Of a DNA stretch of 64,000 nucleotides, positions 17,804 through 45,543 are shown piece by piece (the stretch's first letter is position 1; each line of letters begins with the position of its first letter). Source of the DNA: Nitrospirota bacterium (lineage in GTDB: Bacteria > Nitrospirota > UBA9217). The stretch lies in NCBI GenBank assembly GCA_020052615.1, contig JAGVOT010000101.1, positions 57,592-121,591 of the forward strand, in the 5' to 3' direction. Under the pieces are notes generated by a model. It had not been told where the DNA came from, searched no databases, and worked only from the letters and a program-made list of their open reading frames with translations. A program made the position numbers and the translations under genes.

Positions 17804-19054
17804 ATGGGACGATTCACTTTCCGCGCCTGGCGCAGGGTGGCAGCGTGGACGCAGGCAGTCCTGATATTGGGACTGCCTTTTGTCCGTGTAGGGGGAGAGA
17901 GCGCCCTCCGGTTCGATGTCCCTACGCTCAAGCTGTACTTCTTCGGTTCGGTCGTCTGGATCAGTGAGGCCTATTTTTTCCTTCTCGTTCTCCTTCTGTT
18001 CGCCATTGGGGTCATGCTGTTCACGGTGCTCTATGGGCGGATCTGGTGCGGCTGGATGTGTCCCCAGACCGTTCTTTCGGACTACTCCCGGTCGATCGAA
18101 AGAATAGCCGCATGGTTCACCGGCCACCGATTCCTCCGGACGGCGTTCTCCCAGGGCCTCCTTGCGGTTTTTTCCACCCTTGTCGCATTCGACCTCGTGG
18201 CTTTTTTCGTATCCCCGTACGATCTTCTGGCCGATGTCCGGTCCCGGTCGATAGGCCCCTGGACCTTCTGGTCATGGATCTTTTTTTCGTCCCTTATCTA
18301 CCTGAATCTGGTATTTGTACGCCAGCGCTTCTGCGCTTCGATCTGTCCTTATGCGCGTTTCCAGAGCGCGTTCTTTGACCAAGACACGCTGACCATCGCT
18401 TTCGACGCATCACGTGCCGGTGAATGCATGGGATGTGAGGCCTGTGTGAGGACCTGTCCCGCGGAGATAGATATCCGGCAGGGCCTCCAGGTCGAGTGCA
18501 TTAATTGCGCCGCGTGCATCGATGCGTGCTCCCACCAGAGGGACCGATATGGAAAAGGATCTCTGGTGTATTATGCGAAAGGGAAAGGTGGTCATGACGG
18601 ACAGGCCGGGACCCGGCCGCGCGTGGTATGGCTTTCTCTCCTGCTATCCGTCATTGCGGTGCTGTTCCTGTACCAGATCTACAGCAGGATGCCTGTTGAT
18701 TTCTGGGTTATCCGGGACGAAAGGCAAAGTTATCACCAGATCGGGGTGCGGGGCAATATATTAAACGCTTACAGCCTGCTGATCGAGAACCGAAGCCTGA
18801 CGCCGGGGATCTATCAGCTCAGTATTTCAGGCATCAAGGATGCTGAACTTGTCATATCGCAGAACCCTGTTCGCATTCCACCGAACAGTTCCGCGCGCTT
18901 GCCGGTCTATGTCTTCGCAAAGAGGCAGAACCTTTCCGAGCGAATGACCCGGATCCGATTTACCCTGACGGATACTGTATCGAGTGAGATCAGGATCGAC
19001 CAGGAGGCGCCGTTCATCTATCCCGAACGATCTGACAAGGGAGTTGATATCTGA
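17804..19054 (+). CDS. ccoG: cbb3 oxidase accessory 4Fe-4S ferredoxin CcoG/FixG.
   Basis: GRIWCGWMCPQT, ASICPYARFQ, CMGCEACVRTCP, CINCAACIDAC, plus N-terminal TM helices. Confidence 0.85.
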   Translation: MGRFTFRAWRRVAAWTQAVLILGLPFVRVGGESALRFDVPTLKLYFFGSVVWISEAYFFLLVLLLFAIGVMLFTVLYGRIWCGWMCPQTVLSDYSRSIERIAAWFTGHRFLRTAFSQGLLAVFSTLVAFDLVAFFVSPYDLLADVRSRSIGPWTFWSWIFFSSLIYLNLVFVRQRFCASICPYARFQSAFFDQDTLTIAFDASRAGECMGCEACVRTCPAEIDIRQGLQVECINCAACIDACSHQRDRYGKGSLVYYAKGKGGHDGQAGTRPRVVWLSLLLSVIAVLFLYQIYSRMPVDFWVIRDERQSYHQIGVRGNILNAYSLLIENRSLTPGIYQLSISGIKDAELVISQNPVRIPPNSSARLPVYVFAKRQNLSERMTRIRFTLTDTVSSEIRIDQEAPFIYPERSDKGVDI

Positions 19055-19056
19055 CA

Positions 19057-21521
19057 TGGAGACTTCGACCGCTCACTCGGGGCGCTGTGACCATTGCCTG
19101 CTTCCGGTTGACGGACAGGATGCCCGGTATGATGATTATCCTACTGGTCGCAAGACCTTCTGCTGCAATGCCTGCCGGGCAATTTACCGGATGATCCAGG
19201 AGGAAGGCCTTGGTGAGTTCTATCGGAAACGGGACTGGCGATCCTCGGGCATACCCAAAACCCTCATCACAGCCGGTGATCGAGGCACGGAACCTGACGT
19301 TGAGGAACTCGAAGCGCTAGCGACCTTCATCCGGGGGGATGGCTTGGTAAAAGAGGCAAACCTCATGATCGACGGCATCAGGTGCGCTTCCTGCATCTGG
19401 CTGAACGAGAAGGTCCTTGAAAGAACACCGGGGATACTTTCAGCCCGGGTGAACTTTGCCACCCATCGTGCCCAGATACGCTGGGACAGTTCACGGATCA
19501 CGCTGGGGAGGATACTGTCGCGCATCAGGTCTGCGGGGTACATCGCCAGGACCTTCACACCTGATGCGCACGAGGCTTTGCTCAAACAGCAGAACCGCGA
19601 CCTGCTGCTTCGTTTCGGCACTGCGGCGTTCTTTTCCATGCAGCTGATGCTGTTCTCCTTCGGCCTCTACGCGGGTTTTTTTCAAGGCATCGATCCGGTG
19701 AGCAAACACTGGCTCGAATACGGCGCCCTGCTGGTCTGCACGCCGGTGCTCTTCTATTCCGGATGGCCTTTCCTGAAGAGCGCTGCTCGCGGCATACGGA
19801 ACAGGTCCCTCAATATGGATGTCCTGATAGTTCTGGGTGCGCTCTCCGCTTACGCTTTGAGCGTTCGTCAGATGCTCATGGGAGGCGAGGTCTATTTTGA
19901 CACCTCGGCGATGATCATTACCCTGGTGCTCCTCGGCAGGCTGCTCGAGAACGCAGCAAGGCACAAGGCGTCTGAGGCCGTAACGCGTCTTCTTGCGCTC
20001 CAGCCGCAGGAGGCACGGTTGGTCCAGGGTACGGACCGCGTGATCGTGCCTGCAGCAAGGGTTCTCATCGGGGACCTGATCGAGATCCTGCCCGGAGAAA
20101 AGGTCCCTCTGGACGGGATCGTTCGTCAGGGGACATCGGAAACCGATGGATCGCTCGTCACCGGTGAGTCAATGCCCGTCGACGTATCGGCGGGGTCAGA
20201 AGTTATCGGCGGTTCGTTGAACGGGCTTGGATCGCTGATCGTAGAGGTTACCCGTATCGGCCAGGATACGCTCATTGCCCAGATATCCCGGCTCGTGGAA
20301 CAGGCCCAGGCGGCGACAGCGCCGATCCAGAGGCTCGCCGACAGGATCTCGGCGTACTTCATCCCCGTTGTGCTGGCAGCTTCGGGAGCCACATTCTGGT
20401 ACTCCTATCACTATTTTTACGTCGACCACTCGCTGCTCAATGCCGTGTCCGTCCTGGTCATCGCCTGTCCCTGCGCTCTGGGCCTGGCAACGCCGGTTGC
20501 GGTCCTTGCCGGTACCGGGTTTGCTGCACGAAAGGGGATCCTCATCAAGGGCGGGGACATCCTTGAGCGCATACACAAGGTGCATACGGTCGTTTTGGAC
20601 AAGACCGGTACGATCACGACGGGAAAGATGAGCGTTGTTGAGATCAGGGGGCAGGGGTCAGGGGTCAGGGGTCAAGGGGAAGAAAAAGAAATAGTGCAGT
20701 ATGCCGCGTCAGCAGAGCAGGGATCCGAACATCCCATGGGGTCTGCAATCGTACGGCATGCCGAACAAGAGGGGATCCAACTCTATCCCTTTGCTGCATT
20801 CAAGGCAACTCCGGGACAAGGAGTGGAGGCCGCGGTCAATGGATCAGTCGTTGTTGTTGGCAAGAGAGCATACCTGGAAGCCAGGGGGGTCGCGCTTGAT
20901 CCAGCCATCGTCCAGGAAGCGGGACTGATCGAAAATACCGGAAAGACCGTTATATGGGTCGCTCGCGGAACAATGTCCCTCGGTTATCTCGCCTTGATGG
21001 ACATTCCCAAGGAAGATTCGGAGGCTGCAGTCGGTCTGTTGAAGAGCATGCGTATTGATGTTACGATGGTCACCGGAGACAATGCCGCGACGGCGCGGGC
21101 GATCGCGGACCGGACGGGAATTACTTCGGTCATTGCCGGAGTACTGCCGCGGGAGAAATCAGAAGAAATTGAGCGATTGAAAGCGCAGGGAAAGGTGGTT
21201 GCCATGGTCGGCGACGGGATCAACGACGCGCCGGCGCTCGCCGCTGCCGATATCGGCATGGCCATGGCCTCGGGTACTGATATTGCCATGGAATCGGCTG
21301 ATGTGGTGCTCATGCGGTCCGACCTGAAAAGCGTGGTCCAGGCCATTGAGCTGTCCCGAAAGACGTTCAGGATCATCAAGCAGAACCTTTTTTGGGCATT
21401 TTTTTACAATGTTGCGGCTATACCTCTCGCCATGGCAGGACTTTTAAACCCGATCATTGCAGCGGCGGCAATGGCGATAAGCTCGGTTACGGTGGTGATG
21501 AATTCACTTCGCTTAAGATAA
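19057..21521 (+). CDS. ccoI: Copper-translocating P1B-type ATPase CcoI/FixI.
   Basis: N-terminal Cys-rich CDHC...CCNACR. HMA: IDGIRCASCIWLNEK. CPC: VIACPCALGLATP. DKTGTITTGK, HP, VTGDN, GDGINDAPAL. Its ATG overlaps the ccoG stop. Confidence 0.9.
20645..20679 (+). repeat. Tandem 7-bp repeat (CAGGGGT x3 perfect plus flanking degenerate copies) inside ccoI, encoding RGQGSGVRGQGEE.
   Basis: agatcaGGGGGCAGGGGTCAGGGGTCAGGGGTCAAGGGGaag. Confidence 0.8.
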
Positions 21522-34545: not shown

Positions 34546-34603
34546 GACCTCTTATACAATACCTCTCTCCTAATTGCAAGGGCATCTGTGTTATACTCGA
34601 GCT

Positions 34604-35929
34604 ATGCATAAGAAGGCTTATTCACTCCTGATCGCACTATCGATCCTGTGTGCGACGGTCATTGCATGCGGTCACTGCCTCGCCGCAGAACGGATGTCTC
34701 TCGAGGAATGCATCAATACGGCGCTCAAAAGCCAGCCGACCATCAGGGCGGCACGGGAGAACGTCCGCGCAGGCCGGGGCCGGGAGACCCAGGCGGCATC
34801 GCCCTATTTCCCTCAGCTCACGGCAAGCACCGGCTATTCCGAGAGCCACTCCCCCATGGGCGGCGCGTTCTTCGGAGGCAGCATAACGAAAACCTATACA
34901 ACATCGCTGTCGGTCAACCAGACGCTCTATGACTTCGGAAAGACCGGCAACGCCTACGACGCGGCGAAATGGGGAACGCTGTCGTCGGAGCAAGATGCGG
35001 AACAGGTCAGCCAGGAGGTCGTGCTGAACGTCAAGCAATCCTATTACGGGCTGCTCGCCGCAACGAAGCTTGTCGAGGTCGCCCGGAAAACGGTCGAGCA
35101 GACCGAAAGCCACCTGCGCCAGGCAGAGGCGTTCTTTCGAGCGGGCTCCAAACCACGGTATGACGTTACGAGGGCCGAGGTGGAAGTGAACAATGCGAAA
35201 CTCGGTCTTATCAACGCAAGGAACAGTGTGCGCTTGCGGACCATTGCCCTGAACAATGCCATGGGCATCGATCCGGGAAGATCAACGGAGATCGTCGAAG
35301 CGCTTCCTGAGGTCCCGGCACTGCCGGCGCTGGGGCAGGCCCAGATCGACGCCCTCAAGAACCGCCCGGACATGAGAAGGACGGAGACCGACATCGAGGC
35401 AGCACGTTCCCGTGTCCAGGCCGAACGGTCGAACTATCTGCCGACGCTATCGGCGAATGCCGCCTACAACTGGGCGACCGGGTCCTCAGAGTTTGGCCAG
35501 TTCATGGGGACGACGCTCAAGGGGGATGTCCAGAACAGCTGGAACGCCGGGATCATGCTGACGCTTCCCCTGTTCCAGGGCGGCTTGACGAAAGGCCGGG
35601 TGAGCGAGGCGCGTGCGAATCAGCTCGCGCTCGAGGCCCAGCGGGACATCATGAAACAGTCGATCCTCTTCGAAGTGAACCAGGCCTTTGCGGATCTCGA
35701 AAGCGCGGCTGCCAGGGTGGATGTCATGGAGAAGACACTGCAAAAGGCCCGGGAAAACCTTGAGATCGCCCAAGGCAGATATAAAGCAGGGGTCGGGGCC
35801 TATATTGAGATCACCGACGCCCAGCTTTCCTCGGTCAATTCAGAAACGGACCATATCAAAGCGCTTTATGATTTTCACCTGTCGATAGCCCAGCTCCTGA
35901 AGGCCATGGGCCGGCAAAACGGCGATTGA
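34604..35929 (+). CDS. Outer-membrane efflux protein (TolC family) of the ABC-type tripartite pump.
   Basis: Signal peptide MHKKAYSLLIALSILCATVIA. OEP repeats: VNQTLYDFGKTG, TLPLFQGGLTKGRVSEARA. Confidence 0.7.
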   Translation: MHKKAYSLLIALSILCATVIACGHCLAAERMSLEECINTALKSQPTIRAARENVRAGRGRETQAASPYFPQLTASTGYSESHSPMGGAFFGGSITKTYTTSLSVNQTLYDFGKTGNAYDAAKWGTLSSEQDAEQVSQEVVLNVKQSYYGLLAATKLVEVARKTVEQTESHLRQAEAFFRAGSKPRYDVTRAEVEVNNAKLGLINARNSVRLRTIALNNAMGIDPGRSTEIVEALPEVPALPALGQAQIDALKNRPDMRRTETDIEAARSRVQAERSNYLPTLSANAAYNWATGSSEFGQFMGTTLKGDVQNSWNAGIMLTLPLFQGGLTKGRVSEARANQLALEAQRDIMKQSILFEVNQAFADLESAAARVDVMEKTLQKARENLEIAQGRYKAGVGAYIEITDAQLSSVNSETDHIKALYDFHLSIAQLLKAMGRQNGD

Positions 35930-35990
35930 TCGCGCATGCACGTCCGGGACGCATCCTTCGTTCACCATCCCGCACTTCGAGGAGTATTCC

Positions 35991-36449
35991 ATGCCGAAAG
36001 TTGAATCAGTGTTCACGGTGAAACTGCCCATCAGGGCAGTGTGGTCCTTTATGTCCGACCGGAACGAAGTGGGCTGTCTCTTTCCGGGATGCAAGGGCGT
36101 CAGGATCATCGACCATCTCGATGCGGTCTGGAAAGTACGCGTGACCTTCGGCCCCTTCGCCCGGACCGTGGAGCTGAAGACGCACACCACGGTGTTCAAG
36201 GAGTTCGAACAGCTCTCCTGGGTCGGAAGCGGAGGGGATATCCACATGTCGGGCGACGTCATCCTGAGAAGGATATCTGATGACGAGACCGAGGTTGTGT
36301 ATCACCTGGAAGGGCATGTGACCGGACCATTTGCCATGCTCCAGGACATCGTGGTGGCGGAGAAATTGCGTGAAGTAAAGAAGAAGTTCATCAGGAACAT
36401 CAGGGACGAACTGGAATGGCAGTTGGAAGAAGGCGGGGAGAAGAAATGA
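35991..36449 (+). CDS. SRPBCC-superfamily (CoxG / polyketide-cyclase-like) protein embedded in the efflux operon.
   Basis: MPKVESVFTVKLPIRAVWSFMSDRNEVGCLFPGCKG...~150 aa. Confidence 0.45.
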   Translation: MPKVESVFTVKLPIRAVWSFMSDRNEVGCLFPGCKGVRIIDHLDAVWKVRVTFGPFARTVELKTHTTVFKEFEQLSWVGSGGDIHMSGDVILRRISDDETEVVYHLEGHVTGPFAMLQDIVVAEKLREVKKKFIRNIRDELEWQLEEGGEKK

Positions 36450-37546
36450 CGCTGGCGCTGTTCAGGAACAAAAAGCTGTTGATAGCCCTTGCAGCCGCTG
36501 CGGCCGTTGTGCTCATTGTCCTGGTGTCAGGAAAAAAACCGGTCCCGGTCAGAGTGCTTGAACTCAAGCCTGGTGAACTGCGCGTCATCGTGAACGCCAC
36601 CACCACGTCGACGATCAAGTCGGAATACGAGGTCACCCTGTCAGCGCAGCGCACGGGGCGGGTCGTCAAACTGCCGGTGCGGGAGGGAGACCGGGTCCGG
36701 AAAGGCGACCTGATCGCGCGGCTCGATCTCTCCGAGGAGTCGGTCCAGTCGGAGAACATGCTTGCTCAGAGCAGGGCGACCTATGATGAGGCGGAAAAGA
36801 ACCTCAAACGTTCGGAGGACCTTTTCAACAAGGGAATGATCTCCCAGCAGGATTACGAGGGAACCAGGCGGGCCTACGAAGTGGCGAAGTCGCAGTTCGA
36901 GGCATCGCGCGAAGATGCCCGGGTGAAGAAGGATTACTCCGTCATCACGTCTCCGTTCAACGGCGTGATCTCCCGAAAATACACGGAGGTAGGCGAACTG
37001 CTCCTTCCGGGGAAACAGATCGTGACCATTGTGGATCCCGATCGGATCTACGTTCTCGCGACGATCGATGAGGTGGACGTCGGGAGGCTTCGTCTGGACC
37101 AGCCGGTGAACATTACGGTGGATGCATTCCCCGGTGAGCGGTTCTCCGGCGAGATCCGAAGGATATCACCCATCGTGAGCGGGGGAAAGCTGGAGACCCG
37201 GACCGCCGATGTATGGATCTATTTTTCTTCCAGGGACGCCAGGATCAAGCCGGGCATGTCCGCAGACATCGAGGTGCTCATCGCAACGGTGAAGGACGTC
37301 CTTGCATCACCTTCGCAGGCGATCGTAGAACGCGACGGGAAGAAGCAGATCTTTGTGGCTGAGGGAAAAGGTATTCGGCCGGGAGTCAAGACCCGCGTGC
37401 GGTTGCGGCCGGTGGAGATCGGAGAAAGCAACTGGATCAGTACGGAGATCAGGAAAGGCCTGGCGCCGGGAGAATTCGTCGTCACGACGCCCGAGTCGGA
37501 AGGATTGAAGGACGGCGTAACGATCAGGATCGAGGAAACCAAATAA
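36446..37546 (+). CDS. Periplasmic adaptor (membrane fusion protein, HlyD/MacA family).
   Basis: N-terminal TM; coiled-coil ESVQSENMLAQSRATYDEAEKNLKRSEDLFNKGMISQQDYEGTRRAYEVAKSQFEASRE; beta-barrel/lipoyl motifs. Its start overlaps the preceding stop. Confidence 0.75.
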   Translation: MTLALFRNKKLLIALAAAAAVVLIVLVSGKKPVPVRVLELKPGELRVIVNATTTSTIKSEYEVTLSAQRTGRVVKLPVREGDRVRKGDLIARLDLSEESVQSENMLAQSRATYDEAEKNLKRSEDLFNKGMISQQDYEGTRRAYEVAKSQFEASREDARVKKDYSVITSPFNGVISRKYTEVGELLLPGKQIVTIVDPDRIYVLATIDEVDVGRLRLDQPVNITVDAFPGERFSGEIRRISPIVSGGKLETRTADVWIYFSSRDARIKPGMSADIEVLIATVKDVLASPSQAIVERDGKKQIFVAEGKGIRPGVKTRVRLRPVEIGESNWISTEIRKGLAPGEFVVTTPESEGLKDGVTIRIEETK

Positions 37547-37578
37547 GCTCTCATCTCCCAACATCAGGTCGTTATGCC

Positions 37579-38256
37579 ATGATAGAACTTCGGGACATCA
37601 GCAAGAACTACCGCATGGGAGAACTGGATATCTGCGCGCTCTGCGGCGTGTCTCTTTCGGTGAAACAGGGAGAGCTGATCGCTGTCATGGGGCCGTCGGG
37701 TTCCGGAAAGTCGACGCTCATGAACGTCCTGGGCTGTCTCGACCGTCCGACGGGTGGTACCTACACATTTGAGGACCGCGAGATAAGCGCAATGTCCGAC
37801 GATGAACTTGCTCACGTGCGGAACGCCAAGATCGGTTTCGTCTTCCAGTCCTTCAATCTCCTTCCACGCTTTACGGCCCTGAAGAATGTGGAAATGCCGC
37901 TTGTCTACAGCGGTGTTCCCGGCCGGCTTCGCACCGAGCGGGCGATACCGGTCCTTGAAAAGGTCGGCCTGCAGGACCGCATGTTCCACAAACCCACGGA
38001 ACTTTCGGGCGGTCAGCAGCAGCGCGTGGCCATTGCACGGGCGCTGGTGAACAGGCCGCCGCTCCTGCTCGCCGACGAACCGACGGGCAATCTCGACAGC
38101 CGGTCCGGCGCGGAGATCCTGAACATCCTGTCGGACCTGAACCATCAGGGCGTCACGATCATGATCGTGACCCATGACCATGATGTTGCGGCACGTTGCA
38201 AGCGGATCATCAATCTCAAGGACGGACAGGTCGTCGGAGACCGGCTAAGAACGTGA
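37579..38256 (+). CDS. ABC transporter ATP-binding protein (MacB/LolD subfamily).
   Basis: Walker A GPSGSGKST, Q-loop, signature LSGGQQQRVAIARAL, Walker B LLLADEPTGNLD, H-loop. Confidence 0.9.
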   Translation: MIELRDISKNYRMGELDICALCGVSLSVKQGELIAVMGPSGSGKSTLMNVLGCLDRPTGGTYTFEDREISAMSDDELAHVRNAKIGFVFQSFNLLPRFTALKNVEMPLVYSGVPGRLRTERAIPVLEKVGLQDRMFHKPTELSGGQQQRVAIARALVNRPPLLLADEPTGNLDSRSGAEILNILSDLNHQGVTIMIVTHDHDVAARCKRIINLKDGQVVGDRLRT

Positions 38257-39461
38257 ACTTCCTCGAAACATTCAAGGTCGCACTCGAGGCGATCCTGTCG
38301 AACAAGATGCGCTCGGGCCTCACCATGCTCGGGGTGATCATCGGCGTTCTTGCCGTGATCCTGCTGGTATCAATCGGGGAGGGCGCGCGCGTCTATATCA
38401 CGAAGGAACTGACCGGCCTCGGTACGAACCTGCTCATCATTACACCGGGAAAGACCACGACCAGCGGCGGCTTCCACCCGCCTTCCGCGGGGACGGTCAG
38501 AAAGCTGACCTATGACGATGCCCAGGCGCTCCGTCGACGCGCCTGGCTGCTGACCGATGCGGTTCCCATCGTGCTCGGCACGGGAAGGATCAAGTTCAGG
38601 AACCTCGGCCGAGATACCATGGTCATCGGCACGACGCCGGAGTTCCAGCGTGTGCGGAATCTCTTCATCGGGATCGGAAACTACGTGTCCCAGAACGATG
38701 TCGATACCAAGGCAAAGGTGGTTGTGCTCGGAACCAAGGTCAAGGAGGAGCTGTTCGGTGATCAGAATGCACTCGGACAGGTTGTCATGCTTTCCGATGC
38801 CCGCTATCGCGTCGTCGGGGTGATGCAGAAGAAAGGAACGAGCCTGGGTTGGGACGTTGATGACGTTATTTTCATTCCGGTGACCAGCGGCCAAGACCTG
38901 TTCAGCACCGATTCCTTGTTCGAGATCCTTGCTTCGACGCCGCGCGCTGAAGACGTTGAACGGGCCATTGCCCAGATCAAGGACATCCTGATCAAGCGTC
39001 ACGCCCATAAGGAGGATTTCACCATCCAGACCCAGGGTGCCATGCTGTCCACCATGGACACGATCCTTGGCGTATTGACCGCCGTGCTGGGCGGGATCGC
39101 GGGGATATCGCTTCTGGTCGGAGGCATCGGCATCATGAACATCATGCTTGTCTCGGTGCGTGAACGGACCCGGGAGATCGGCATCCGGAAGGCCATCGGC
39201 GCCCGGAACAGCGACATCATGGCGCAGTTCCTGATCGAGGCCATCACGCTCTCCGGAGTCGGAGGGGTCATCGGCATCATCCTCGGCGTGGGGCTCGCTC
39301 TGTTGATCCCGCTCTTCGTTACCGTGCTCCCGACGAGCGTCTCGCTCTGGTCCATCGCCATGGCTTTCTCGTTCTCCATGGCCGTCGGGGTGTTCTTCGG
39401 CGTGTACCCGGCCCGCAAGGCATCGCTCCAGGACCCGATCACGGCGCTCCGGTATGAATGA
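38253..39461 (+). CDS. ABC transporter permease with an FtsX-like domain (MacB-type). Probable GTG start overlapping the ATPase stop.
   Basis: N-terminal TM, large periplasmic domain, C-terminal FtsX three-TM bundle: GIGIMNIMLVSVRERTREIGIRKAIGA. Confidence 0.75.
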   Translation: MNFLETFKVALEAILSNKMRSGLTMLGVIIGVLAVILLVSIGEGARVYITKELTGLGTNLLIITPGKTTTSGGFHPPSAGTVRKLTYDDAQALRRRAWLLTDAVPIVLGTGRIKFRNLGRDTMVIGTTPEFQRVRNLFIGIGNYVSQNDVDTKAKVVVLGTKVKEELFGDQNALGQVVMLSDARYRVVGVMQKKGTSLGWDVDDVIFIPVTSGQDLFSTDSLFEILASTPRAEDVERAIAQIKDILIKRHAHKEDFTIQTQGAMLSTMDTILGVLTAVLGGIAGISLLVGGIGIMNIMLVSVRERTREIGIRKAIGARNSDIMAQFLIEAITLSGVGGVIGIILGVGLALLIPLFVTVLPTSVSLWSIAMAFSFSMAVGVFFGVYPARKASLQDPITALRYE

Positions 39462-39553
39462 AAAAATGTGATGATGGACTACGTGCCGCGATTCTTTTGC
39501 TATAATGAAAGCGATAGAAGGGGAGAATCACTGAAACGTGGAGGATATGCTTA

Positions 39554-40057
39554 ATGGCGAAGCGGACAGGTGTCTTTATGGTCAAGACGAACTGGTGGTA
39601 TATTGAACGGCTGGTCTGGCTCATCGCCGGGACCGATGTTCTCGCCAGTTCCGTCCTGGCGGCAGCCCATCATCCGAACTGGGCGTTCTCGATCCTCTTC
39701 GTCGGCCTGTGCTCCATTTGTGTCGCACTGACGGGCTTTTGCATCGTCGGTAATGTCCTGTACTGGTGCGGCGTGCAGCCGTTGGTACCGGACAAGAAGA
39801 CCCTGCAGAACGGCAAATGGAGCGGCCTGTACTTCATGCAGACCGATGAGTGGTTCCTGGAGCGTTATATCTATATTTTCGTCGGCGTGAACCTCTCCCT
39901 GTCGTCGATGCTCTCCCTGTTCCTAAGCCCCGCCTGGCTGTATTTCACGGGATTCGTGGGCTCAGCCACCATCGTATTCGCTTTCACCGGGTTCTGCATC
40001 ATGGCGAACCTGCTCTATCGCCTGGGCGCGGAACCGAAGATGTGCCGCTTTATCTAG
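39554..40057 (+). CDS. Membrane protein with two tandem DUF2892 (YgaP-like) modules.
   Basis: Repeated pattern NWWYIERLVWLIAG...GLCSICVALTGFCIVGNVLYWCG and DEWFLERYIYIFVG...TIVFAFTGFCIMANLLYRLG. A -10 TATAAT lies upstream. Confidence 0.5.
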   Translation: MAKRTGVFMVKTNWWYIERLVWLIAGTDVLASSVLAAAHHPNWAFSILFVGLCSICVALTGFCIVGNVLYWCGVQPLVPDKKTLQNGKWSGLYFMQTDEWFLERYIYIFVGVNLSLSSMLSLFLSPAWLYFTGFVGSATIVFAFTGFCIMANLLYRLGAEPKMCRFI

Positions 40058-40070
40058 ACCGCGGGATCGA

Positions 40071-40523
40071 TCAGAATTTATCCGCGTGCCCTTCCAGCGC
40101 TGCAAGGGGAATGAGATAGTTTCCCTTTTCCATTCTGCCGCTGACCCGGATAGGATAGCACCCCCCCAGGCCCTTCTCCAATTTATACACCGAGAAACTC
40201 ATATCGCAGGCACGGCACACGACGTAGCCGTCCTTGTCCTGATACCCGCGTTTTTTCGGATAGCAAGTCACGCAGGCGTCGAGGAACGAAAAGACCTTGT
40301 CCTGGACCTTCAGGACGAAGAAATTCACGTTCCGGTCCTGATGACGGTAGGTAAAGAACCGGGGGACCTCGGGCGTGAGCGAAGCAACATCAATGACCGC
40401 GTAGGGGCCGGACTGCGGAGGGGCGGGGTAGCGCGGTTGCCGGGAACAGGACGTCACCGCGGTCAGGACGACCAAAAGCAGGAGCGTAATGCGGCACGGA
40501 TATGATCGAAGCACGTTGCTCAT
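40071..40523 (-). CDS. Cys-rich lipoprotein with CxxC-(x18)-CxxC (zinc-ribbon-like; possibly DUF2318-related).
   Basis: MSNVLRSYPCRITLLLLVVLTAVTSC has a lipobox. LDACVTCYPKKRGYQDKDGYVVCRACDM. Confidence 0.4.
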   Translation of the reverse strand: MSNVLRSYPCRITLLLLVVLTAVTSCSRQPRYPAPPQSGPYAVIDVASLTPEVPRFFTYRHQDRNVNFFVLKVQDKVFSFLDACVTCYPKKRGYQDKDGYVVCRACDMSFSVYKLEKGLGGCYPIRVSGRMEKGNYLIPLAALEGHADKF

Positions 40524-40607
40524 AAGGCATGATAACATGGAACCCATCGTACGACAAGGGAGACAGGTTCAGGAAACAGGTTCCGTTGAGTGTCGCCAAG
40601 GAAGTAT

Positions 40608-41084
40608 TTATTTACGCTCCCGGCCAAGATCCTCCCGGGCGGCAGCGAGGGCTTCGGGCCAGGTTGCAATCTGCCCTCCATAGCGGGCAATAAAAGCTTC
40701 GGCAACCGGCCTCGACCTGAAGGCCCACTTGGGCCGCTGGGTCATGACCCCGCGCTTGGTTCCTCCCATCACCCATACAGCCGATTCGGCCGGTGTGAGC
40801 GTCCGGTCACCACGGTCGGCTATGAACAGTGCCTTGACCGCGCGGTCCTTATGGGACTCGAGCTCTATGACGGCGCAGTGCAGGCTGCAGACCCCCGTTT
40901 CGGCGCCGTCCTCGTAGCGGATCAGCATCCTGCTGAACCCGTAGGCCTTCCGGTCCATCCCGCAGAATTCGCAGAAGCGGTGGTCATCGATGTCGCTGGT
41001 ACCGTCGCCTGCCAGTGCGGTGACCCCGAAAAGTACCGCGATTGCCAGCAAGACCGCTCTTCTCCCATGATGTCGTTCTCTCAT
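40608..41084 (-). CDS. NosL-like copper-chaperone family protein (secreted).
   Basis: Signal peptide. CEFCGMDRKAY...GVCSLHCAV resembles the NosL Cu(I)-binding CxxCGM region. Confidence 0.5.
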   Translation of the reverse strand: MRERHHGRRAVLLAIAVLFGVTALAGDGTSDIDDHRFCEFCGMDRKAYGFSRMLIRYEDGAETGVCSLHCAVIELESHKDRAVKALFIADRGDRTLTPAESAVWVMGGTKRGVMTQRPKWAFRSRPVAEAFIARYGGQIATWPEALAAAREDLGRERK

Positions 41085-41118
41085 TATGATCCGCTCCTTA
41101 TCGTTATGATGCCGACCG

Positions 41119-41676
41119 TCAGGGCAGAGCAGACAGCGAGGCTCTCAGCCGGGCACCGTCCTTGTAATCCTCGTTCAAACGGACGATGCCGGCCCGGTCG
41201 ATAACGACCGTGGTCCCCATCGTACCATGGAACAGGTCAAGAACTGCAAGGGTCGTATCTGCCAGGACCGTGAATCCGGAACCTGCATAGCCGTTCGAAA
41301 GCTCCGCGTTTCGCGCATTAACAACGCTTCCTGATACATAATCCACGAGAAAGAAGCGGACGTCGGGATAGTTGGGAAGTACGGTAGACCGCATGTTGCT
41401 CATATGCATATCGCAGACCGGGCACCACATGGTGAAATAAATCACCGTTCCTCTGACCCCGGGGGATGAAATAACGGACGAGAGGGTAACGATGTTTCCG
41501 AGGGTGTCGGTGAGCGTGAAGTCCGTTGCGATCTGGCATACATCCGGCCCGGTGATTCCGCATGTGACAGCGGGGCGCTTGTCGGCGCCCGACGGCGCGA
41601 TGTCGTCCATCATGCCGCCGCATCCGGCCATCAGGAACAGCAGGACCCACAGCGGTCGCGTCTTAACGGAAGCCAT
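41119..41676 (-). CDS. Thioredoxin-fold redoxin lipoprotein (TlpA/AhpC-like).
   Basis: MASVKTRPLWVLLFLMAGCGG (lipobox). Active-site context IYFTMWCPVC. Confidence 0.6.
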   Translation of the reverse strand: MASVKTRPLWVLLFLMAGCGGMMDDIAPSGADKRPAVTCGITGPDVCQIATDFTLTDTLGNIVTLSSVISSPGVRGTVIYFTMWCPVCDMHMSNMRSTVLPNYPDVRFFLVDYVSGSVVNARNAELSNGYAGSGFTVLADTTLAVLDLFHGTMGTTVVIDRAGIVRLNEDYKDGARLRASLSALP

Positions 41677-42646
41677 AGCTGACCCCCAGCGTATAGATAT
41701 CCGTGGTCGGAAAGTTTGAACCCCACCCATCGAGCAAGATCGCATGGCTCATGCTCACCCGGACGCTCCAGTCGTGATCGGTGCTCGAGTATGCCAGGGA
41801 ACCGCCTGCGGAGGTCTTCTTGAACCCGCTGGACGGGTCAGATACGCCTTCGATCGTCCCCTCGGCCTCGCTGATCTGCGATAGCGACGCGGTGCCGGTC
41901 AGTGCGTCTCCGCCGGTCCCGAGATAATAGATGTAGCCTATTGAGAGAACAGCGGAGCTCCGGTCGCCAAGCTTCCTGCGGTATGGTTCGACATAGTTGC
42001 CGTATTCCCTGTTGACCGACCGCTCGACATAGGCCCCGTATGACAGGGAGAGGGATGCGGTCCAGGGATGGATCGTTTTCGCTATCATGACGTTCCCGTC
42101 GACCCGGTAAAAGCCACGTCCGGTCACGTCGAAACTGCTGGTAACCTCATCGTACGGTGATATGCCCGTCGGGACGAGAAGCGACGGGCCAATAAGCACG
42201 GAGGGAGTCATATCCTTGAGGTTTCGTACCTTCCACGCGGATTCGTCGTCGAACGGCTCGTACCAGAGGTTCATGGTTATATCGCCCAATCCATCAGTTC
42301 GGGACGAAAAGTTGTTATAGGCATTATCGTTCCAGACGTACGGCACGACGATGCTTGCCTGCCAGCGAGGGGAAAATCGCTGTCCATATCCCAGGTTCAG
42401 ACGGTATTGTTGCAGGTCCGACCCGGGAGGGTCGGCCCGGTGGATCCCGCGCTGGTCCCAGTAGCCGTTGTATATTTCGATATCAGATGATACATCGACC
42501 ATGGCCGAATAGAATTTCGGCAAGACAAGGCCGGTACCGCCCGCTCCGCCGCAGCAGGATCCTGCATGAACGGAGAGGGGCGGGAATAGCGCGGCCCCCG
42601 CGAGAAGAACCGCCAGAATGCGAGACCGGTTTATCCGCTTGTTCAT
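41663..42646 (-). CDS. Putative outer-membrane beta-barrel protein.
   Basis: Signal peptide MNKRINRSRILAVLLAGAALFPPLSVHA. Alternating amphipathic beta-strands; aromatic C-terminus ...YTLGVSYGFR. Confidence 0.4.
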   Translation of the reverse strand: MNKRINRSRILAVLLAGAALFPPLSVHAGSCCGGAGGTGLVLPKFYSAMVDVSSDIEIYNGYWDQRGIHRADPPGSDLQQYRLNLGYGQRFSPRWQASIVVPYVWNDNAYNNFSSRTDGLGDITMNLWYEPFDDESAWKVRNLKDMTPSVLIGPSLLVPTGISPYDEVTSSFDVTGRGFYRVDGNVMIAKTIHPWTASLSLSYGAYVERSVNREYGNYVEPYRRKLGDRSSAVLSIGYIYYLGTGGDALTGTASLSQISEAEGTIEGVSDPSSGFKKTSAGGSLAYSSTDHDWSVRVSMSHAILLDGWGSNFPTTDIYTLGVSYGFR

Positions 42647-42668
42647 CAGCTGTCACCGGCGAGTTGCG

Positions 42669-43580
42669 TCATGGCGCAGGGGTCACTATGAAGGTCGCAT
42701 AGGTATTCGTAAGCGACGCATTCGACACCAGGCCATCGGTTGTTTTCACCTTGCTATTGACCGTCATGCGCACATAGACCGTGTTCGTCACCGCGCTGGT
42801 CAGTGTTAACCCTGAAACGATCCAGTGTCCGTCGCCCGCGGGATTGGTGCCGGTCAGCCAGGATGATAATGGGTTGGTCGTGGCTTCCACAAGAGCGGAA
42901 CTCACGGTAAAGGGCGTGTTCTGCTCATTCGTAAGCGTTGCGCCGGTGAATATGGCAGGATAGGACGTCATCATGTTGCCCTGCGCCGCAAGGAACAGAT
43001 TGATCTGTGTGGCTGATGCCGCGCCGTCACTGAACAGGTAATATGACCGCATTGCTGTCCCTGTCGTTAGGGATATCAGGTCGTCGTTTTGTCCCTTCAG
43101 GGCAGCACGCACGGTGTCGGTTCCCATGCCCATGCCTACAGATGGGTAGAACGTGGCTGTCTCTGAACCGATATTGACCTGCAGTTCCCAGTAACCACCC
43201 ATCGTGCCGGTCCCGGAAGCCATGAGGTAATAGACCGTGCAATCGTAAGTCCCATCCGCATTATCCGTGACGGCGTCCACAGGTGAGCTGTGGCTCTTGG
43301 AACTCATGTGCATAAACGGATAGACGGATAGGGATAGACCTGGTGCTGCCGCAAAGGTGCTTCTGTTGCGCACCCGCAGCTTGAAGGTCGTTTTTCCCGT
43401 TGTTGCGTCAGCCATCATCCCGCCCATCGTGGTCCCCGGGATATATTCCACCAGATAGGTACTCGCTGGGCTTGATGCCTGCACATACACTGTCTCTGTC
43501 TTTGTCTCTGTTCCGCAACCGGCCAGAAGAACAATTCCGGCACTCAACATCAAATAGGTTTTGATCTTTTGAAGCACCAT
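42669..43580 (-). CDS. Lipoprotein with several Met motifs (MGGMM, MHMSS, MGMGT, NMMT).
   Basis: MVLQKIKTYLMLSAGIVLLAGCG (lipobox). Met-containing motifs are reminiscent of Cu(I)-binding MxxM sites; no other recognisable domain. Confidence 0.35.
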   Translation of the reverse strand: MVLQKIKTYLMLSAGIVLLAGCGTETKTETVYVQASSPASTYLVEYIPGTTMGGMMADATTGKTTFKLRVRNRSTFAAAPGLSLSVYPFMHMSSKSHSSPVDAVTDNADGTYDCTVYYLMASGTGTMGGYWELQVNIGSETATFYPSVGMGMGTDTVRAALKGQNDDLISLTTGTAMRSYYLFSDGAASATQINLFLAAQGNMMTSYPAIFTGATLTNEQNTPFTVSSALVEATTNPLSSWLTGTNPAGDGHWIVSGLTLTSAVTNTVYVRMTVNSKVKTTDGLVSNASLTNTYATFIVTPAP

Positions 43581-43602
43581 AGCGCATTCTCCCCTGAACG
43601 GT

Positions 43603-44097
43603 TTATTTTAGATCCAGCAGATCGGCAATATCGGTTTCGTAATTCAACAATGACCTCTTCTCAAATCCCCAATAACGCTTCTGAACGACCCCGGTCCTGT
43701 CGATAAGGAAACTCGCAGGCAGGCCGGAGACCCGATATGCATCTGCAACTTGACTGCTTCCATCGATGACGGCGGGAAAGGTAACCGCAAATTTCTTCAG
43801 GAACGACGATACCCCGCTTGCCGATGTTTCCACGCTGATCGCGATGACGACAAACCCCTTGTCGCGGTATTTCACATATAGCCGCTCGAGATCGGGCAGT
43901 TCATCCCTGCAGGGAACGCACCAGGGCGCCCAGAAGACCAGATACAGGACCTTTCCCCGGAACTGCTGCAACGTGAGCTGTGTCCCGTGCAGGTCCGTGA
44001 GCGAGAATGCCGGGGCCGGATAAGTATCGTGAACGGCAAAGCCATCGCACGGCAAAAGGAATGTGAAAAGAAATGCTGTAATAGCGCGTCGCATCAT
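43603..44097 (-). CDS. TlpA/ResA-like periplasmic thiol-disulfide oxidoreductase.
   Basis: MMRRAITAFLFTFLLP signal sequence. Active site VFWAPWCVPCRDELP; thioredoxin fold. Confidence 0.7.
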   Translation of the reverse strand: MMRRAITAFLFTFLLPCDGFAVHDTYPAPAFSLTDLHGTQLTLQQFRGKVLYLVFWAPWCVPCRDELPDLERLYVKYRDKGFVVIAISVETSASGVSSFLKKFAVTFPAVIDGSSQVADAYRVSGLPASFLIDRTGVVQKRYWGFEKRSLLNYETDIADLLDLK

Positions 44098-44161
44098 ATT
44101 GTCTGGAGATAAAGGCGGGCGGGGGGAAAGTCTTCCACCCGCCCGGGTTGGATTTAGTGAA

Positions 44162-44974
44162 CTATTTCCTCGCGGTCGGCGGAGCCGGCACTTTCGCAGG
44201 GTGGCATTCGGCGCAGTTCTGCTGAGCCGTGATGCCGAAGGTCTTGCCTGGCGTCCACGTGGATTTAGGCTTAAAGGTCGCGTCTTTCCACGCATTGAGA
44301 TCGACAACGAGTTTGTGGGCGACGCTCGCCGCGACGCGTGCACAACGGTCTTTTCGTTCAGCACTTCCCAGGACGAAGCCTGATTTATCCATCCATTTGC
44401 CGACGGATACATGGCAAAGCGGGGATTCGCTCTTGGTCTGAATGATCGCGGTCTTCTGCTTCGGTTCCTTTGGCGTGTATGTGGGAAGAGGCGTATTGGA
44501 ATACCAATCCATCATGTCCGATCCGATCGTATGGCCATGCTCGCAATCCGGTCCCCCGATCCGGGGGCCGATGATCAGATTGCTCACGATATTGGCGCCT
44601 GCGTTGGATCCGCACACGGTGCCCCACCCCGCCATGCCGCCCTCCAGGAAGACGAAAGAGTCCGCCGGAAAGGATTTATAAGGCTCTCCGACCTTCTCCC
44701 TCAGCTGGCTGAACACGGCATTGATGACCGCGGCGCCGCAGAATACGCGGTACCATTCGTTGTAGGCGATCTCCGCGGTCTTGTCGGGATCGAGCTTTAC
44801 GTACGGCCAGGGCCATTTTTCCATGCTGGCGCCCACTGCATTGGCATCCTTGATGAATCCCGGGATCGACGTTGCCAGCGCCGTGATGCCGGCAGCGCCG
44901 AGGGCTGCGGTCCCGGCTCCTTTCAGAAAGTGTCTGCGAGAGCACTCCAGTTCGAACTGTCGATCTGTTTTCAT
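44162..44974 (-). CDS. Tat-exported protein with a cupredoxin-like C-x-H-x-H-x5-MM loop and a C-terminal CAECH motif.
   Basis: Twin-arginine signal MKTDRQFELECSRRHFLKGAGTAALGAAG. PDCEHGHTIGSDMMDW and QQNCAECHP. Start set at CAT 44972-44974 with a GAGAGGAA RBS. Confidence 0.4.
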   Translation of the reverse strand: MKTDRQFELECSRRHFLKGAGTAALGAAGITALATSIPGFIKDANAVGASMEKWPWPYVKLDPDKTAEIAYNEWYRVFCGAAVINAVFSQLREKVGEPYKSFPADSFVFLEGGMAGWGTVCGSNAGANIVSNLIIGPRIGGPDCEHGHTIGSDMMDWYSNTPLPTYTPKEPKQKTAIIQTKSESPLCHVSVGKWMDKSGFVLGSAERKDRCARVAASVAHKLVVDLNAWKDATFKPKSTWTPGKTFGITAQQNCAECHPAKVPAPPTARK

Positions 44975-45070
44975 AGGGTGTTCCTCTCTTATGATCGGAT
45001 TCCGGAACCAGGAAGGAACCGGTTTGGCGCACGTTGGGTGCGCATATTTCGGCACTGAGGCCATTTCAGC

Positions 45071-45135
45071 GAAAAATTGGCTCCGCTTCGGACAGAGTGA
45101 TCCGCGGGATGAGGCGATGTATCCGAAGCGGAGCC
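45071..45135 (-). terminator. Strong intrinsic terminator (minus strand) after the small Cys-rich peptide gene.
   Basis: 14-bp stem GGCTCCGCTTCGGA / TCCGAAGCGGAGCC with an inner palindrome ATCCGCGGGAT in the loop. On the minus strand it is followed by AATTTTTCG. Confidence 0.6.
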
Positions 45136-45255
45136 GAGCGTAAAGGGGAGATGCCTCTCACAGGATCATGCATCGGCTTGCAGGACAATGCACGAACGCA
45201 ATGAGAGCGCTGCTGCGCGCTGACTCGCTGTTACGGAACTGCAGGGATGTGGAAA

Positions 45256-45543
45256 TTACGACTGGGGAGGTTGCTCGTTGCGCGTGGAAAGGATCAATTC
45301 AGCAAAGACGGGGCAGGCTGTTTCGTGGATCGTGACGAACAGGAGAGGGATGATGCCGTAAGCGGTCATGTGTACGCAGGGCATTTCGCCGTTCGAAGAG
45401 AGGGCAGGGGCGGCTGAATTGCAGACATCGAGCGCGGTCAGCACCTCACATCCGTTGCCGGCAATGTTGAGCGAGAATGACGACAGGGGCGTCACAAGGG
45501 CGACCGCGATGACCATCAGGAGGATGATGGATATCCTTCTCAT
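45256..45543 (-). CDS. Small (95 aa) membrane/secreted Cys-rich peptide, hypothetical.
   Basis: N-terminal TM MRRISIILLMVIAVALVT; four Cys including MPCVHM; C-terminal hydrophobic segment. Confidence 0.3.
   Translation of the reverse strand: MRRISIILLMVIAVALVTPLSSFSLNIAGNGCEVLTALDVCNSAAPALSSNGEMPCVHMTAYGIIPLLFVTIHETACPVFAELILSTRNEQPPQS

Follow-up and report, generated by a model that had tools for sequence, protein, structure and literature searches.

In a 64,000-nucleotide stretch of contig JAGVOT010000101.1 from a Nitrospirota bacterium (GCA_020052615.1, positions 57,592 to 121,591; hereafter the window), eight consecutive minus-strand genes at 40071-45543 form a cluster whose central part recurs in four bacterial lineages. 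This part, hereafter the trio, encodes a lipoprotein with two immunoglobulin (Ig)-like domains, a small outer-membrane beta-barrel, and a thioredoxin-fold (redoxin) lipoprotein. Judging from conserved residues and gene order, we consider it probable that the cluster forms a modular system of the cell envelope that handles Cu(I), built around this three-protein outer-membrane unit. The first-pass annotation of the window had proposed copper trafficking by all eight genes together. The copper part of that proposal is retained, being backed by a NosL-family protein, a Met/His lipoprotein, and Sco, CopD, or Csp1 genes in relatives, but the extent of the unit, the type of the barrel, and the link to the cbb3 oxidase had to be revised.

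Conservation of the trio across four lineages

Exact matches to the window NosL and barrel proteins were looked for on public contigs and not found, and homologues were used in their place. Eighty non-duplicate loci were fetched, comprising 24 from Nitrospirota, 31 from Desulfuromonadales (including Geobacteraceae) and others, 24 from Gammaproteobacteria (Chromatiales, Sedimenticola, and Thiohalomonadales), and one from a Zetaproteobacterium. The open reading frames (ORFs) of each locus were searched with the window proteins, all neighbours were clustered, and 130 unlabelled neighbours from 54 non-Nitrospirota loci were taken through a Pfam census. Contig ends interrupt many loci, and the counts of accessory genes given below are lower bounds.

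The genes for the lipoprotein, the barrel, and the redoxin lipoprotein were adjacent, in the same order, and on one strand in all 80 loci (79 of 80 for the lipoprotein), with the redoxin lipoprotein directly downstream of the barrel in every case. The loci span Nitrospirota, Desulfuromonadales, Gammaproteobacteria, and Zetaproteobacteria, and recurrence of the core order in 80 of 80 loci of four lineages is far beyond chance. Distant relatives of the barrel also have such partners: one locus (L084) contains a YtkA lipoprotein with a recorded PF13115 match, the barrel, and then a CxxC lipoprotein, another (L086) a redoxin, a YtkA-like lipoprotein, and then the barrel, and a third (L083) a YtkA-like lipoprotein followed by the barrel. 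Because the 80 loci and these distant relatives keep the partners, the trio is an evolutionary unit. Co-occurrence in related genomes had been named beforehand as a test of the copper hypothesis; it was strong in four lineages, and the hypothesis survived.

The single eight-gene module of the first-pass annotation did not hold. Only the lipoprotein-barrel-redoxin trio was universal among the 80 loci, the other genes being accessory, and the per-locus gene counts ruled out all eight genes as one obligatory unit. Some lineages only have the protein exported by twin-arginine translocation (Tat), the FtrD-like protein, or the MacAB pump as accessories.

Predicted metal-binding residues of the trio and of the NosL homologue

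The AlphaFold2 model of the core lipoprotein consists of two Ig-like beta-sandwiches (predicted local distance difference test score, pLDDT, 88), for which a Foldseek comparison with the PDB returned generic immunoglobulin matches only (TM about 0.2). Three methionines (M90, M92, and M120) were invariant in 74 of 74 lipoproteins from the four lineages, H97 was present in 70 of them, and M150 and M152 in 68. By sequence, the first domain is YtkA/CtaK-like, with a conserved M-x-M, Met, and His, and the several Met motifs noted earlier in this lipoprotein proved to include invariant positions. Most relatives have a long form of about 530 amino acids, and the window protein is a short form of 303. 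The long form (e.g., L001:8426-9982 and L034:8206-9810) adds an N-terminal region of about 230 amino acids, CarboxypepD_reg-like and helical, and both forms were found within the same lineage.

The barrel is predicted as a closed barrel with a disordered N-terminal tail (pLDDT 81). A fold search placed it with the FapF/COG4313 fold at a sequence identity of only 14-16%; it matched no Pfam family, and when the alignment of barrels was run as a profile against the PDB, only FapF came back (E=0.42). Its identification as an outer-membrane barrel is supported by the predicted fold, but the NosA/OprC type suggested at first is not, the protein being small and FapF/COG4313-like. With 327 amino acids and no plug domain it is not a 22-strand TonB-dependent receptor, which ruled out the OprC/NosA type, and the PcoB/CopB type (PF05275) was ruled out as neither a profile match nor the closest fold.

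Directly after the A-x-A signal-peptidase site, the barrel tail begins with S30-C31-C32-G33-G34, which was invariant in 80 of 80 barrels. This region also fits a lipobox, and Cys31 might therefore be lipidated. We found more than 840 close barrel homologues, every one unnamed in databases. A scan of one genome per species located the barrel in 191 species, and an exhaustive search of 1.84 billion representative proteins yielded 324 relatives. The relatives examined at 25-30% identity (P0315, P0317, P0323, P0325, P0333, P0369, P0385, and P0331) keep the N-terminal Cys-Cys directly after the signal peptide, except for one that has Ser-Cys-His in its place, an amino-terminal X-X-His arrangement. 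The Cys-Cys motif appears to mark a broader family of barrels, as yet unnamed and with about 300 representative sequences.

The redoxin lipoprotein, correctly recognized as such at first pass, is very divergent, and its sole PDB match was 3kcm (E=0.003), too distant for a close structural relative. We placed its start at 41676 rather than 41745, M24 being conserved in 80 of 81 sequences, which gives a 14-nt overlap with the stop codon of the barrel gene. The motif M106-W-C108-P-x-C111 and M176 were present in 81 of 81 sequences and H114 in 74, and the lipobox Cys (C42) is conserved.

The NosL homologue matched PF05573 with 39.9 bits (cut-off 24; E=6.6e-10) over profile positions 3-124 of 131. 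In the crystal structure of Shewanella denitrificans NosL, zinc is bound by C59, C88, and D92, and Cu(I) by C62 (bridging), M64, and M145, the latter three residues being strictly conserved and essential (PMC8457098). The window protein carries C38-x2-C41-x-M43, C66-x3-C70, and M114; HMMER pairs M114 with Met109 of Achromobacter cycloclastes NosL (2hpu), the equivalent of Met145. These ligand residues were conserved in 49-51 of 51 homologues, the Cu(I) ligands among them in 49-50. Judged by this alignment, the window NosL keeps an intact Cu(I) site, with equivalents of all three strictly conserved ligands and the zinc-site cysteines. Its signal peptide ends in ...TALAGDG with no Cys before C38, and the 51 homologues have no conserved N-terminal Cys. 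A phmmer search found NosL in 49 of the 80 loci (21 of 24 in Nitrospirota and 28 of 31 in Desulfuromonadales and others). The NosL-like Cu chaperone of the first-pass annotation is confirmed in family and in its Cu(I) ligands. Membership in Cu-binding families, its second test of the copper hypothesis, was likewise survived, the NosL homologue belonging to PF05573 and the lipoprotein being YtkA/CtaK-like.

Such ligands also raise the question of whether another thiophilic species, such as mercury(II), arsenic(III), silver(I), or sulfane sulfur/polysulfide, is caught by the barrel Cys pair and the CxxC proteins. Mercury, arsenic, and persulfide chemistry would go well with vicinal Cys pairs and CxxC motifs, the hosts are sediment sulfur- and iron-cycling bacteria, among them a Geobacter that respires arsenate, and COG4313-type barrels pass hydrophobic molecules. 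In addition, the NosL fold is shared with MerB (PMC8457098). However, the invariant Met sites and the Cys/Met/Met set of NosL are typical of Cu(I)/Ag(I) rather than of mercury, arsenic, or sulfur, the accessories Csp1, Sco, and CopD are copper-specific families, and the censuses turned up no mer, ars, or sox genes. Judged from sequence, a thiophilic cargo of this kind is very unlikely.

Redox partners, haem proteins, and Fet-like accessory genes

The TlpA-like thioredoxin proposed upstream of the trio was confirmed by a Redoxin match (95.8 bits, E=2.6e-27), a WCVPC motif, and an N-terminal hydrophobic segment serving as a membrane anchor. Its closest PDB relative was ResA (E=1.3e-27), followed by TlpA (E=7.6e-14), and neither NCBIfam equivalog cut-off was reached (123.3 bits against 170 for ResA and 72.9 against 230 for TlpA). 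TlpA-type redoxins were found in 41 of 80 loci: 18 in Nitrospirota, six in Desulfuromonadales and others, 16 in Gammaproteobacteria, and one in Zetaproteobacteria.

The Tat-exported protein has a twin-arginine signal above the cut-off, as claimed earlier (TIGR01409, 17.5 bits against 16.7), matches PF09719 (29.9 bits; cut-off 27), and ends with one C-terminal haem motif, CAECH. Against the split-Soret equivalog NF047622 it scored 132 bits (cut-off 400), with one CxxCH where two are expected; by sequence, it is a distant relative of split-Soret cytochrome c. The gene was found in six of 80 loci, in Nitrospirota only. In two loci (L017:5398-7085 on the minus strand and L028:2229-3874 on the plus strand), a second small-peptide gene, a split-Soret-like gene, and tatA lie together apart from the trio. 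The window arrangement looks like a fusion of two modules.

In 22 loci, mainly of Gammaproteobacteria and Zetaproteobacteria, a c-type cytochrome gene lies directly after the redoxin gene. Multihaem cytochromes fused to NHL beta-propellers are encoded directly upstream of the trio in three to four Gammaproteobacterial loci (L064:5531-7999 on the plus strand, L067, and L070). Together with the similarity of the TlpA-like protein to ResA, a cytochrome-maturation reductase, and the Tat haem protein within the window cluster, these genes would fit a thiol-redox or electron-transfer system for c-type cytochromes (split-Soret-like here, dihaem elsewhere), in which the metal-like motifs are incidental. 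We regard this as very improbable. It leaves the Met/His site, the Cys-Cys barrel, the Cu ligands of NosL, and the Sco, CopD, and Csp1 neighbours unexplained, the split-Soret-like gene is rare, and a cytochrome would be an equally good electron donor for the reduction of Cu(II) or thiols.

The last gene of the cluster encodes the lipoprotein described earlier by its CxxC...CxxC pattern, which proved to be FtrD-like/DUF2318, above the PF10080 cut-off, with conserved C92, C95, C111, C114, C130, and lipobox C34. It was found in 21 of 80 loci, in Nitrospirota only. Genes for an ATPase of ATP-binding cassette (ABC) type occurred in 30 of 80 loci and for an FtsX/MacB-type permease in 27, both in Nitrospirota and Desulfuromonadales. 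An FtsX-type ABC transporter different from the MacAB pump of the window lies on the core strand in Desulfuromonadales and in some Nitrospirota. In eight loci of two lineages (L010:12313-16857, L015, L025, L018, L022, L042, L045, and L074), we observed a sub-operon of a second NosL, a 106-amino-acid protein, an FtsX permease, an ABC ATPase, and a Cys-containing protein of about 330 amino acids with multiple transmembrane segments. In L010 the FtrD-like gene follows this sub-operon, and the resemblance to Fet is clearest in such relatives. By analogy, the sub-operon looks like Campylobacter FetA-D in split form and lacking FetMP.

The loose echo of Campylobacter FetABCDEF suggested at first pass stands in part. 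The DUF2318 protein, the thioredoxins, and the FtsX-type ABC transporter match, but no FetMP accompanies them, and the Fet system does not include DUF2892. The same parts could make the cluster an accessory to iron uptake of the Fet/Ftr type, as in FetMP-FetABCDEF: the DUF2318 protein, the two thioredoxin-like proteins, and the FtsX-type ABC transporter mirror FetA, FetE/F, and FetB-D, and in some relatives the FtsX, ATPase, multi-transmembrane, and FtrD-like genes stand in a row. This is extremely unlikely, as neither Ftr1/FetM nor P19/FetP was found in the annotated 20-kb loci L001 and L002 or among the neighbours of the census, the FtrD-like gene is confined to Nitrospirota loci, and the universal trio has no Fet counterpart. 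The sub-operon hints that copper or thiols, and not iron as such, are what modules of the Fet(A-F) type deal with; if true, these DUF2318/FtsX/thioredoxin modules would be general periplasmic copper/thiol modules, not iron-specific ones.

Copper proteins in related loci and the proposed route

Copper proteins were found beside the trio in several relatives. In the Zetaproteobacterium, a Tat-exported Csp1 is encoded directly downstream of the trio (L053:12338-12895, plus strand; PDB 8r4l/5fjd, E=1.5e-18), and in a groundwater deltaproteobacterium a Csp1-type gene, found via its similarity to the former, lies directly upstream of the lipoprotein gene (L075:2196-2693, plus strand). Such four-helix-bundle proteins were missed by Pfam, and the Zetaproteobacterial one was caught by a PDB sequence search. 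SCO1/SenC follows NosL in L015 (E=6e-23) and was found in four loci in total, and a CopD-domain membrane protein is encoded in L011 (E=7e-17), L019, and L024. In Desulfuromonadales, NosL and the barrel occur in second copies, and a small YtkA protein is added.

On this basis, copper could take the following route. The FapF/COG4313-like barrel would let copper across the outer membrane, and its Ser-Cys-Cys-Gly tail would catch Cu(I) on the periplasmic side. The lipid-anchored YtkA/CtaK-like lipoprotein would receive Cu(I) at its M-x-M/His/Met site; both lipoproteins are presumably located in the outer membrane. The thioredoxin-like lipoprotein would keep thiols reduced and may also reduce Cu(II) or carry copper, with electrons supplied by the ResA/TlpA-type reductase, which a small c-type cytochrome may replace as donor in Gammaproteobacteria and Zetaproteobacteria. 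Soluble NosL would then pass Cu(I) to periplasmic or membrane clients, which in relatives may include Sco, CopD, Csp1, the Fet-like FtsX-ABC/DUF2318 module, or cuproenzymes. We infer copper as the metal, each transfer step, the role of the Cys-Cys tail, and the direction of flow from sequence relationships. More tentatively, the trio may represent a TonB-independent Cu(I) acquisition route of the outer membrane, in which the barrel Cys-Cys acts as a "fishing line" that hands over to the Met/His chaperone and the thioredoxin-like lipoprotein keeps the line reduced; we consider this possible though doubtful.

Several observations weigh against a copper role. None of the 24 Gammaproteobacterial loci contains NosL, nor does the Zetaproteobacterial one; the gene after the redoxin there encodes a cytochrome c. 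Because of this absence, NosL is not essential to the trio. The window lipoprotein has no Pfam match at E<=0.1, and the YtkA matches among its homologues are modest at best: in a one-by-one Pfam scan, PF13115 was matched by 12 of 41 homologues (best E=7e-5), with one FixH match. The barrel Cys-Cys could instead be a lipidation site plus one free Cys, and the nearest structural relatives of the barrel have cargoes other than metal ions, namely unfolded peptides for FapF and hydrophobic molecules for COG4313. Met/Cys/His sites bind silver(I) too, and a Cys-Cys pair is a typical feature of proteins that handle mercury(II). Beside the unit, the census yielded no recurrent client cuproenzyme, and none of its 169 families occurred in more than five proteins; with no cuproenzyme in the census, the unit is self-contained and has no client enzyme in cis. 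Efflux pumps also lie near the cluster in the window (MacAB-TolC, RND, and CDF).

The pumps are relevant to Cu(I)/Ag(I) detoxification, in which the lipoprotein and NosL would sequester the metal and the barrel or MacAB-TolC would expel it, as with PcoB/PcoC or CusCFBA. The soft-ligand chemistry suits sequestration equally well, the TolC-MacA-MacB genes are convergent with the cluster, the RND pump and the CDF transporter are 10-17 kb away, and the FtsX-type ABC transporter is tied to the core in two lineages. Nevertheless, we consider detoxification unlikely: synteny with MacAB is limited to closely related Nitrospirota, and the loci showed none of the hallmarks of copper efflux (CopA, CusF, multicopper oxidase, or CusRS/CueR). 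Two points favour supply or acquisition as the more likely direction of flow: every characterized homologue (NosL, CtaK, Sco, CopD, Csp1, and TlpA) serves to supply, import, or store copper, and the unit has no efflux hallmark tied to it. We hold this direction, like the individual transfer steps, with less confidence than copper handling as such.

As a possible client, we considered the cbb3 oxidase encoded on the plus strand of the window. Its ccoN is adjoined by ccoG/FixG and a CcoI-type P1B ATPase gene, and the oxidase therefore has standard copper-insertion genes beside it. It is at most possible that the cluster serves this oxidase. The absence of nosZ, sco, pcuC, and ccoA reported earlier holds for the window ORFs scanned, and neither nosZ nor nosDFY was found in the annotated neighbourhoods L001 and L002 or in the neighbour census.

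Organization of the window cluster

All eight minus-strand ORFs claimed for the cluster were confirmed, and profile searches (Pfam and NCBIfam) back most of their identities, so that most fall in the families guessed at first (Table 1). The start of the Tat protein probably lies at 44974; the start at 45064 was rejected, a ribosome-binding site having been found for the former. For the TlpA-like protein, a start at 44412 was rejected and replaced by one at about 44097.

Table 1. Features of the window in order of position (core proteins of the trio numbered 1 to 3).
Feature	Position	Strand	Basis or remark
ccoN (cbb3 oxidase)	15142-16539	+	
ccoG/FixG	17804-19054	+	Ig-like FixG_C domain
CcoI-type P1B ATPase	18984-21521	+	
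TolC-like OEP, CoxG-like, MacA, ABC ATPase, MacB permease, tandem YgaP-like (DUF2892)	34574..40057	+	Pfam
FtrD-like/DUF2318 lipoprotein, two CxxC and a fifth Cys	40071..40547	-	PF10080, 60.1 bits (cut-off 26.3)
NosL-family protein, predicted soluble periplasmic form with signal peptide and without lipobox	40608..41084	-	PF05573
Core 3, thioredoxin-fold lipoprotein, very divergent	41119..41676	-	AhpC-TSA (E=2e-7), WCPVC motif
Core 2, outer-membrane beta-barrel of FapF/COG4313 type with flexible N-terminal tail	41663..42646	-	Predicted model, conservation
Core 1, lipoprotein with two Ig-like domains, short form	42669..43580	-	Lipobox LLAGC, AlphaFold2, conservation
ResA/TlpA-family oxidoreductase, membrane-anchored	43603..44097	-	Redoxin match, WCVPC motif; start revised
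Tat-exported C_GCAxxG_C_C protein	44162..44974	-	Start revised from 45064; GAGAGGA ribosome-binding site
Intrinsic-terminator-like hairpin	45071..45135	-	16-bp stem GGCUCCGCUUCGGA...UCCGAAGCGGAGCC, then AAUUUUUC (U-run)
Small exported or membrane peptide, 95 amino acids	45256..45543	-	ORF, 37 homologues

The neighbouring plus-strand MacAB operon is convergent with the cluster. Its synteny is kept only among Nitrospirota relatives, and a functional tie to the cluster is uncertain. Between the MacB permease and FtrD-like genes, a tandem YgaP-like (DUF2892) membrane protein is encoded at 39554-40057 on the plus strand; the gene ends 14 bp from the FtrD-like stop codon and is kept in only five loci.

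The first gene of the cluster encodes a small peptide with an N-terminal hydrophobic segment and no Pfam domain. Its homologues share an invariant core, LDVC(N/H)SAAPALSSNGEMPC, and a C-terminal NE(Q/H)PP(Q/K)(S/A). The gene had been described as a small Cys-rich membrane peptide; it is conserved and has the hydrophobic segment, but Cys-rich is an overstatement, as only C41 and C56 of its four Cys are invariant. A small or Cys-rich peptide gene was found in 43 of 80 loci, in Nitrospirota and Desulfuromonadales, the latter having at the same position a longer Cys-rich version of 160-250 amino acids that ends in (D/E)PPDPPPK. Polyproline C-termini take the form NE(Q/H)PP(K/Q) or QDERPPK in Nitrospirota and ESPPPKYI in the Zetaproteobacterial locus; genes for peptides ending in this way include L037:7800-8285, L063:7421-7933, and L053:7447-8010. 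The polyproline motif suggests a docking motif or translational stalling.

The strong terminator assigned earlier to this gene was confirmed by the 16-bp stem and U-run, which are conserved in relatives. The fold of 45065-45260 has a z-score of -3.9, and a hairpin with near-identical arms, GCTCGGCTCCGCTTCGG ... CTGAAGCGGAGCC followed by a T-run, lies about 140-190 nt after the peptide-gene stop codon in at least 14 Nitrospirota loci; it was noted in the window and in L001-L005, L016, L017, L019, L024, L025, L028, L050, and L065. Three stem positions show compensatory changes (GC to AU). An Rfam scan of 39.5-46.6 kb gave no matching family and only one spurious microRNA match. In many relatives, an ACCGAAG box complementary to the 5' arm of the hairpin follows the stop codon and could be an antiterminator; it was not evident in the window. 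The hairpin is probably a leaky or regulated terminator. Together with the peptide end, it suggests that the first gene product is over-made or that the operon is under arrest or attenuation control; the peptide could be secreted to bind copper and be made in excess, or it could act as a translation-arrest leader controlling read-through into the operon.

Novelty and implications

We found no published description of the trio or of the barrel family in a literature search, and the database names of the trio-family and small-peptide homologues were all "hypothetical protein". Metallochaperones, periplasmic reductases, and small outer-membrane channels are known kinds of protein; the combination, the Cys-Cys barrel family, and the constant pairing are new. 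For copper entry across the outer membrane, only the TonB-dependent OprC and NosA and unspecific porins have been described (PMC7558416). The passage of copper over the outer membrane to periplasmic chaperones is among the least understood steps of copper homeostasis, and the trio offers a compact unit with recognizable residues to mutate. It can be put to the test in two hosts available in culture, Geomonas silvestris (L063) and Geobacter sp. OR-1 (L031).

The 191 host species cycle iron, sulfur, and nitrogen in sediments and groundwater, habitats where copper is scarce because sulfide binds it. If a supply function is true, it would bear on the activity of copper enzymes such as cbb3 oxidase and N2O reductase in sediment and groundwater, would provide a function for barrel and lipoprotein families known only as hypothetical, and would offer a clue to the role of the enigmatic Fet(A-F)-type modules.

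Comparison with known systems

The window NosL resembles that of Shewanella denitrificans in that its C-x2-C-x-M, its second Cys pair 22 residues on, and its G-x-M Met match the zinc/copper site. It differs from canonical NosL (2hpu and 7og7) in lacking a lipobox, being probably soluble, and in having a Cys at the zinc-site position of Asp92. Whereas canonical NosL stands in a nosZ/nosDFY context, its partners here are the outer-membrane barrel/lipoprotein trio.

Campylobacter FetA has eight transmembrane helices with DUF2318 and YHS domains (PMC10783030), and the FtrD-like protein corresponds to its periplasmic domain. The parts matched in FetABCDEF are the DUF2318 protein, the two thioredoxin-like proteins, and the FtsX-type ABC transporter with MacB_PCD; FetMP is lacking here, and the trio has no counterpart there. 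With the TlpA-ScoI-PcuC triad, the cluster shares the logic of a periplasmic thiol reductase combined with metallochaperones, although no Sco or PcuC is encoded in the window ORFs scanned and Sco occurs in four relatives.

Assembly of the CuA site is thought to involve Bacillus subtilis YtkA/CtaK as well as the YtkA domain found in YcnJ, and the assembly defect is rescued by added copper (PMC13344008). The core lipoprotein is likewise a lipoprotein with an Ig-like domain bearing a Met-x-Met ... His/Met motif, but it falls below every Pfam threshold, has a second Ig-like domain, and belongs to a diderm host, where its gene is always paired with that of the barrel.

The Cys-Cys-Gly tail of the barrel does not appear in the descriptions of FapF, an amyloid secretion channel, or of the COG4313 channels ("meta-pathway of phenol degradation"). 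Unlike them, the window barrel is partnered by metal and redox proteins, and no fap or aromatic-catabolism genes were found nearby in the annotated loci L001 and L002 or in the neighbour census. In its proposed role, an outer-membrane copper route, it is like OprC/NosA and PcoB/CopB. OprC binds copper via Cys/Met/His/Met (PMC7558416), the same ligand chemistry that the barrel tail and the lipoprotein share between them here.

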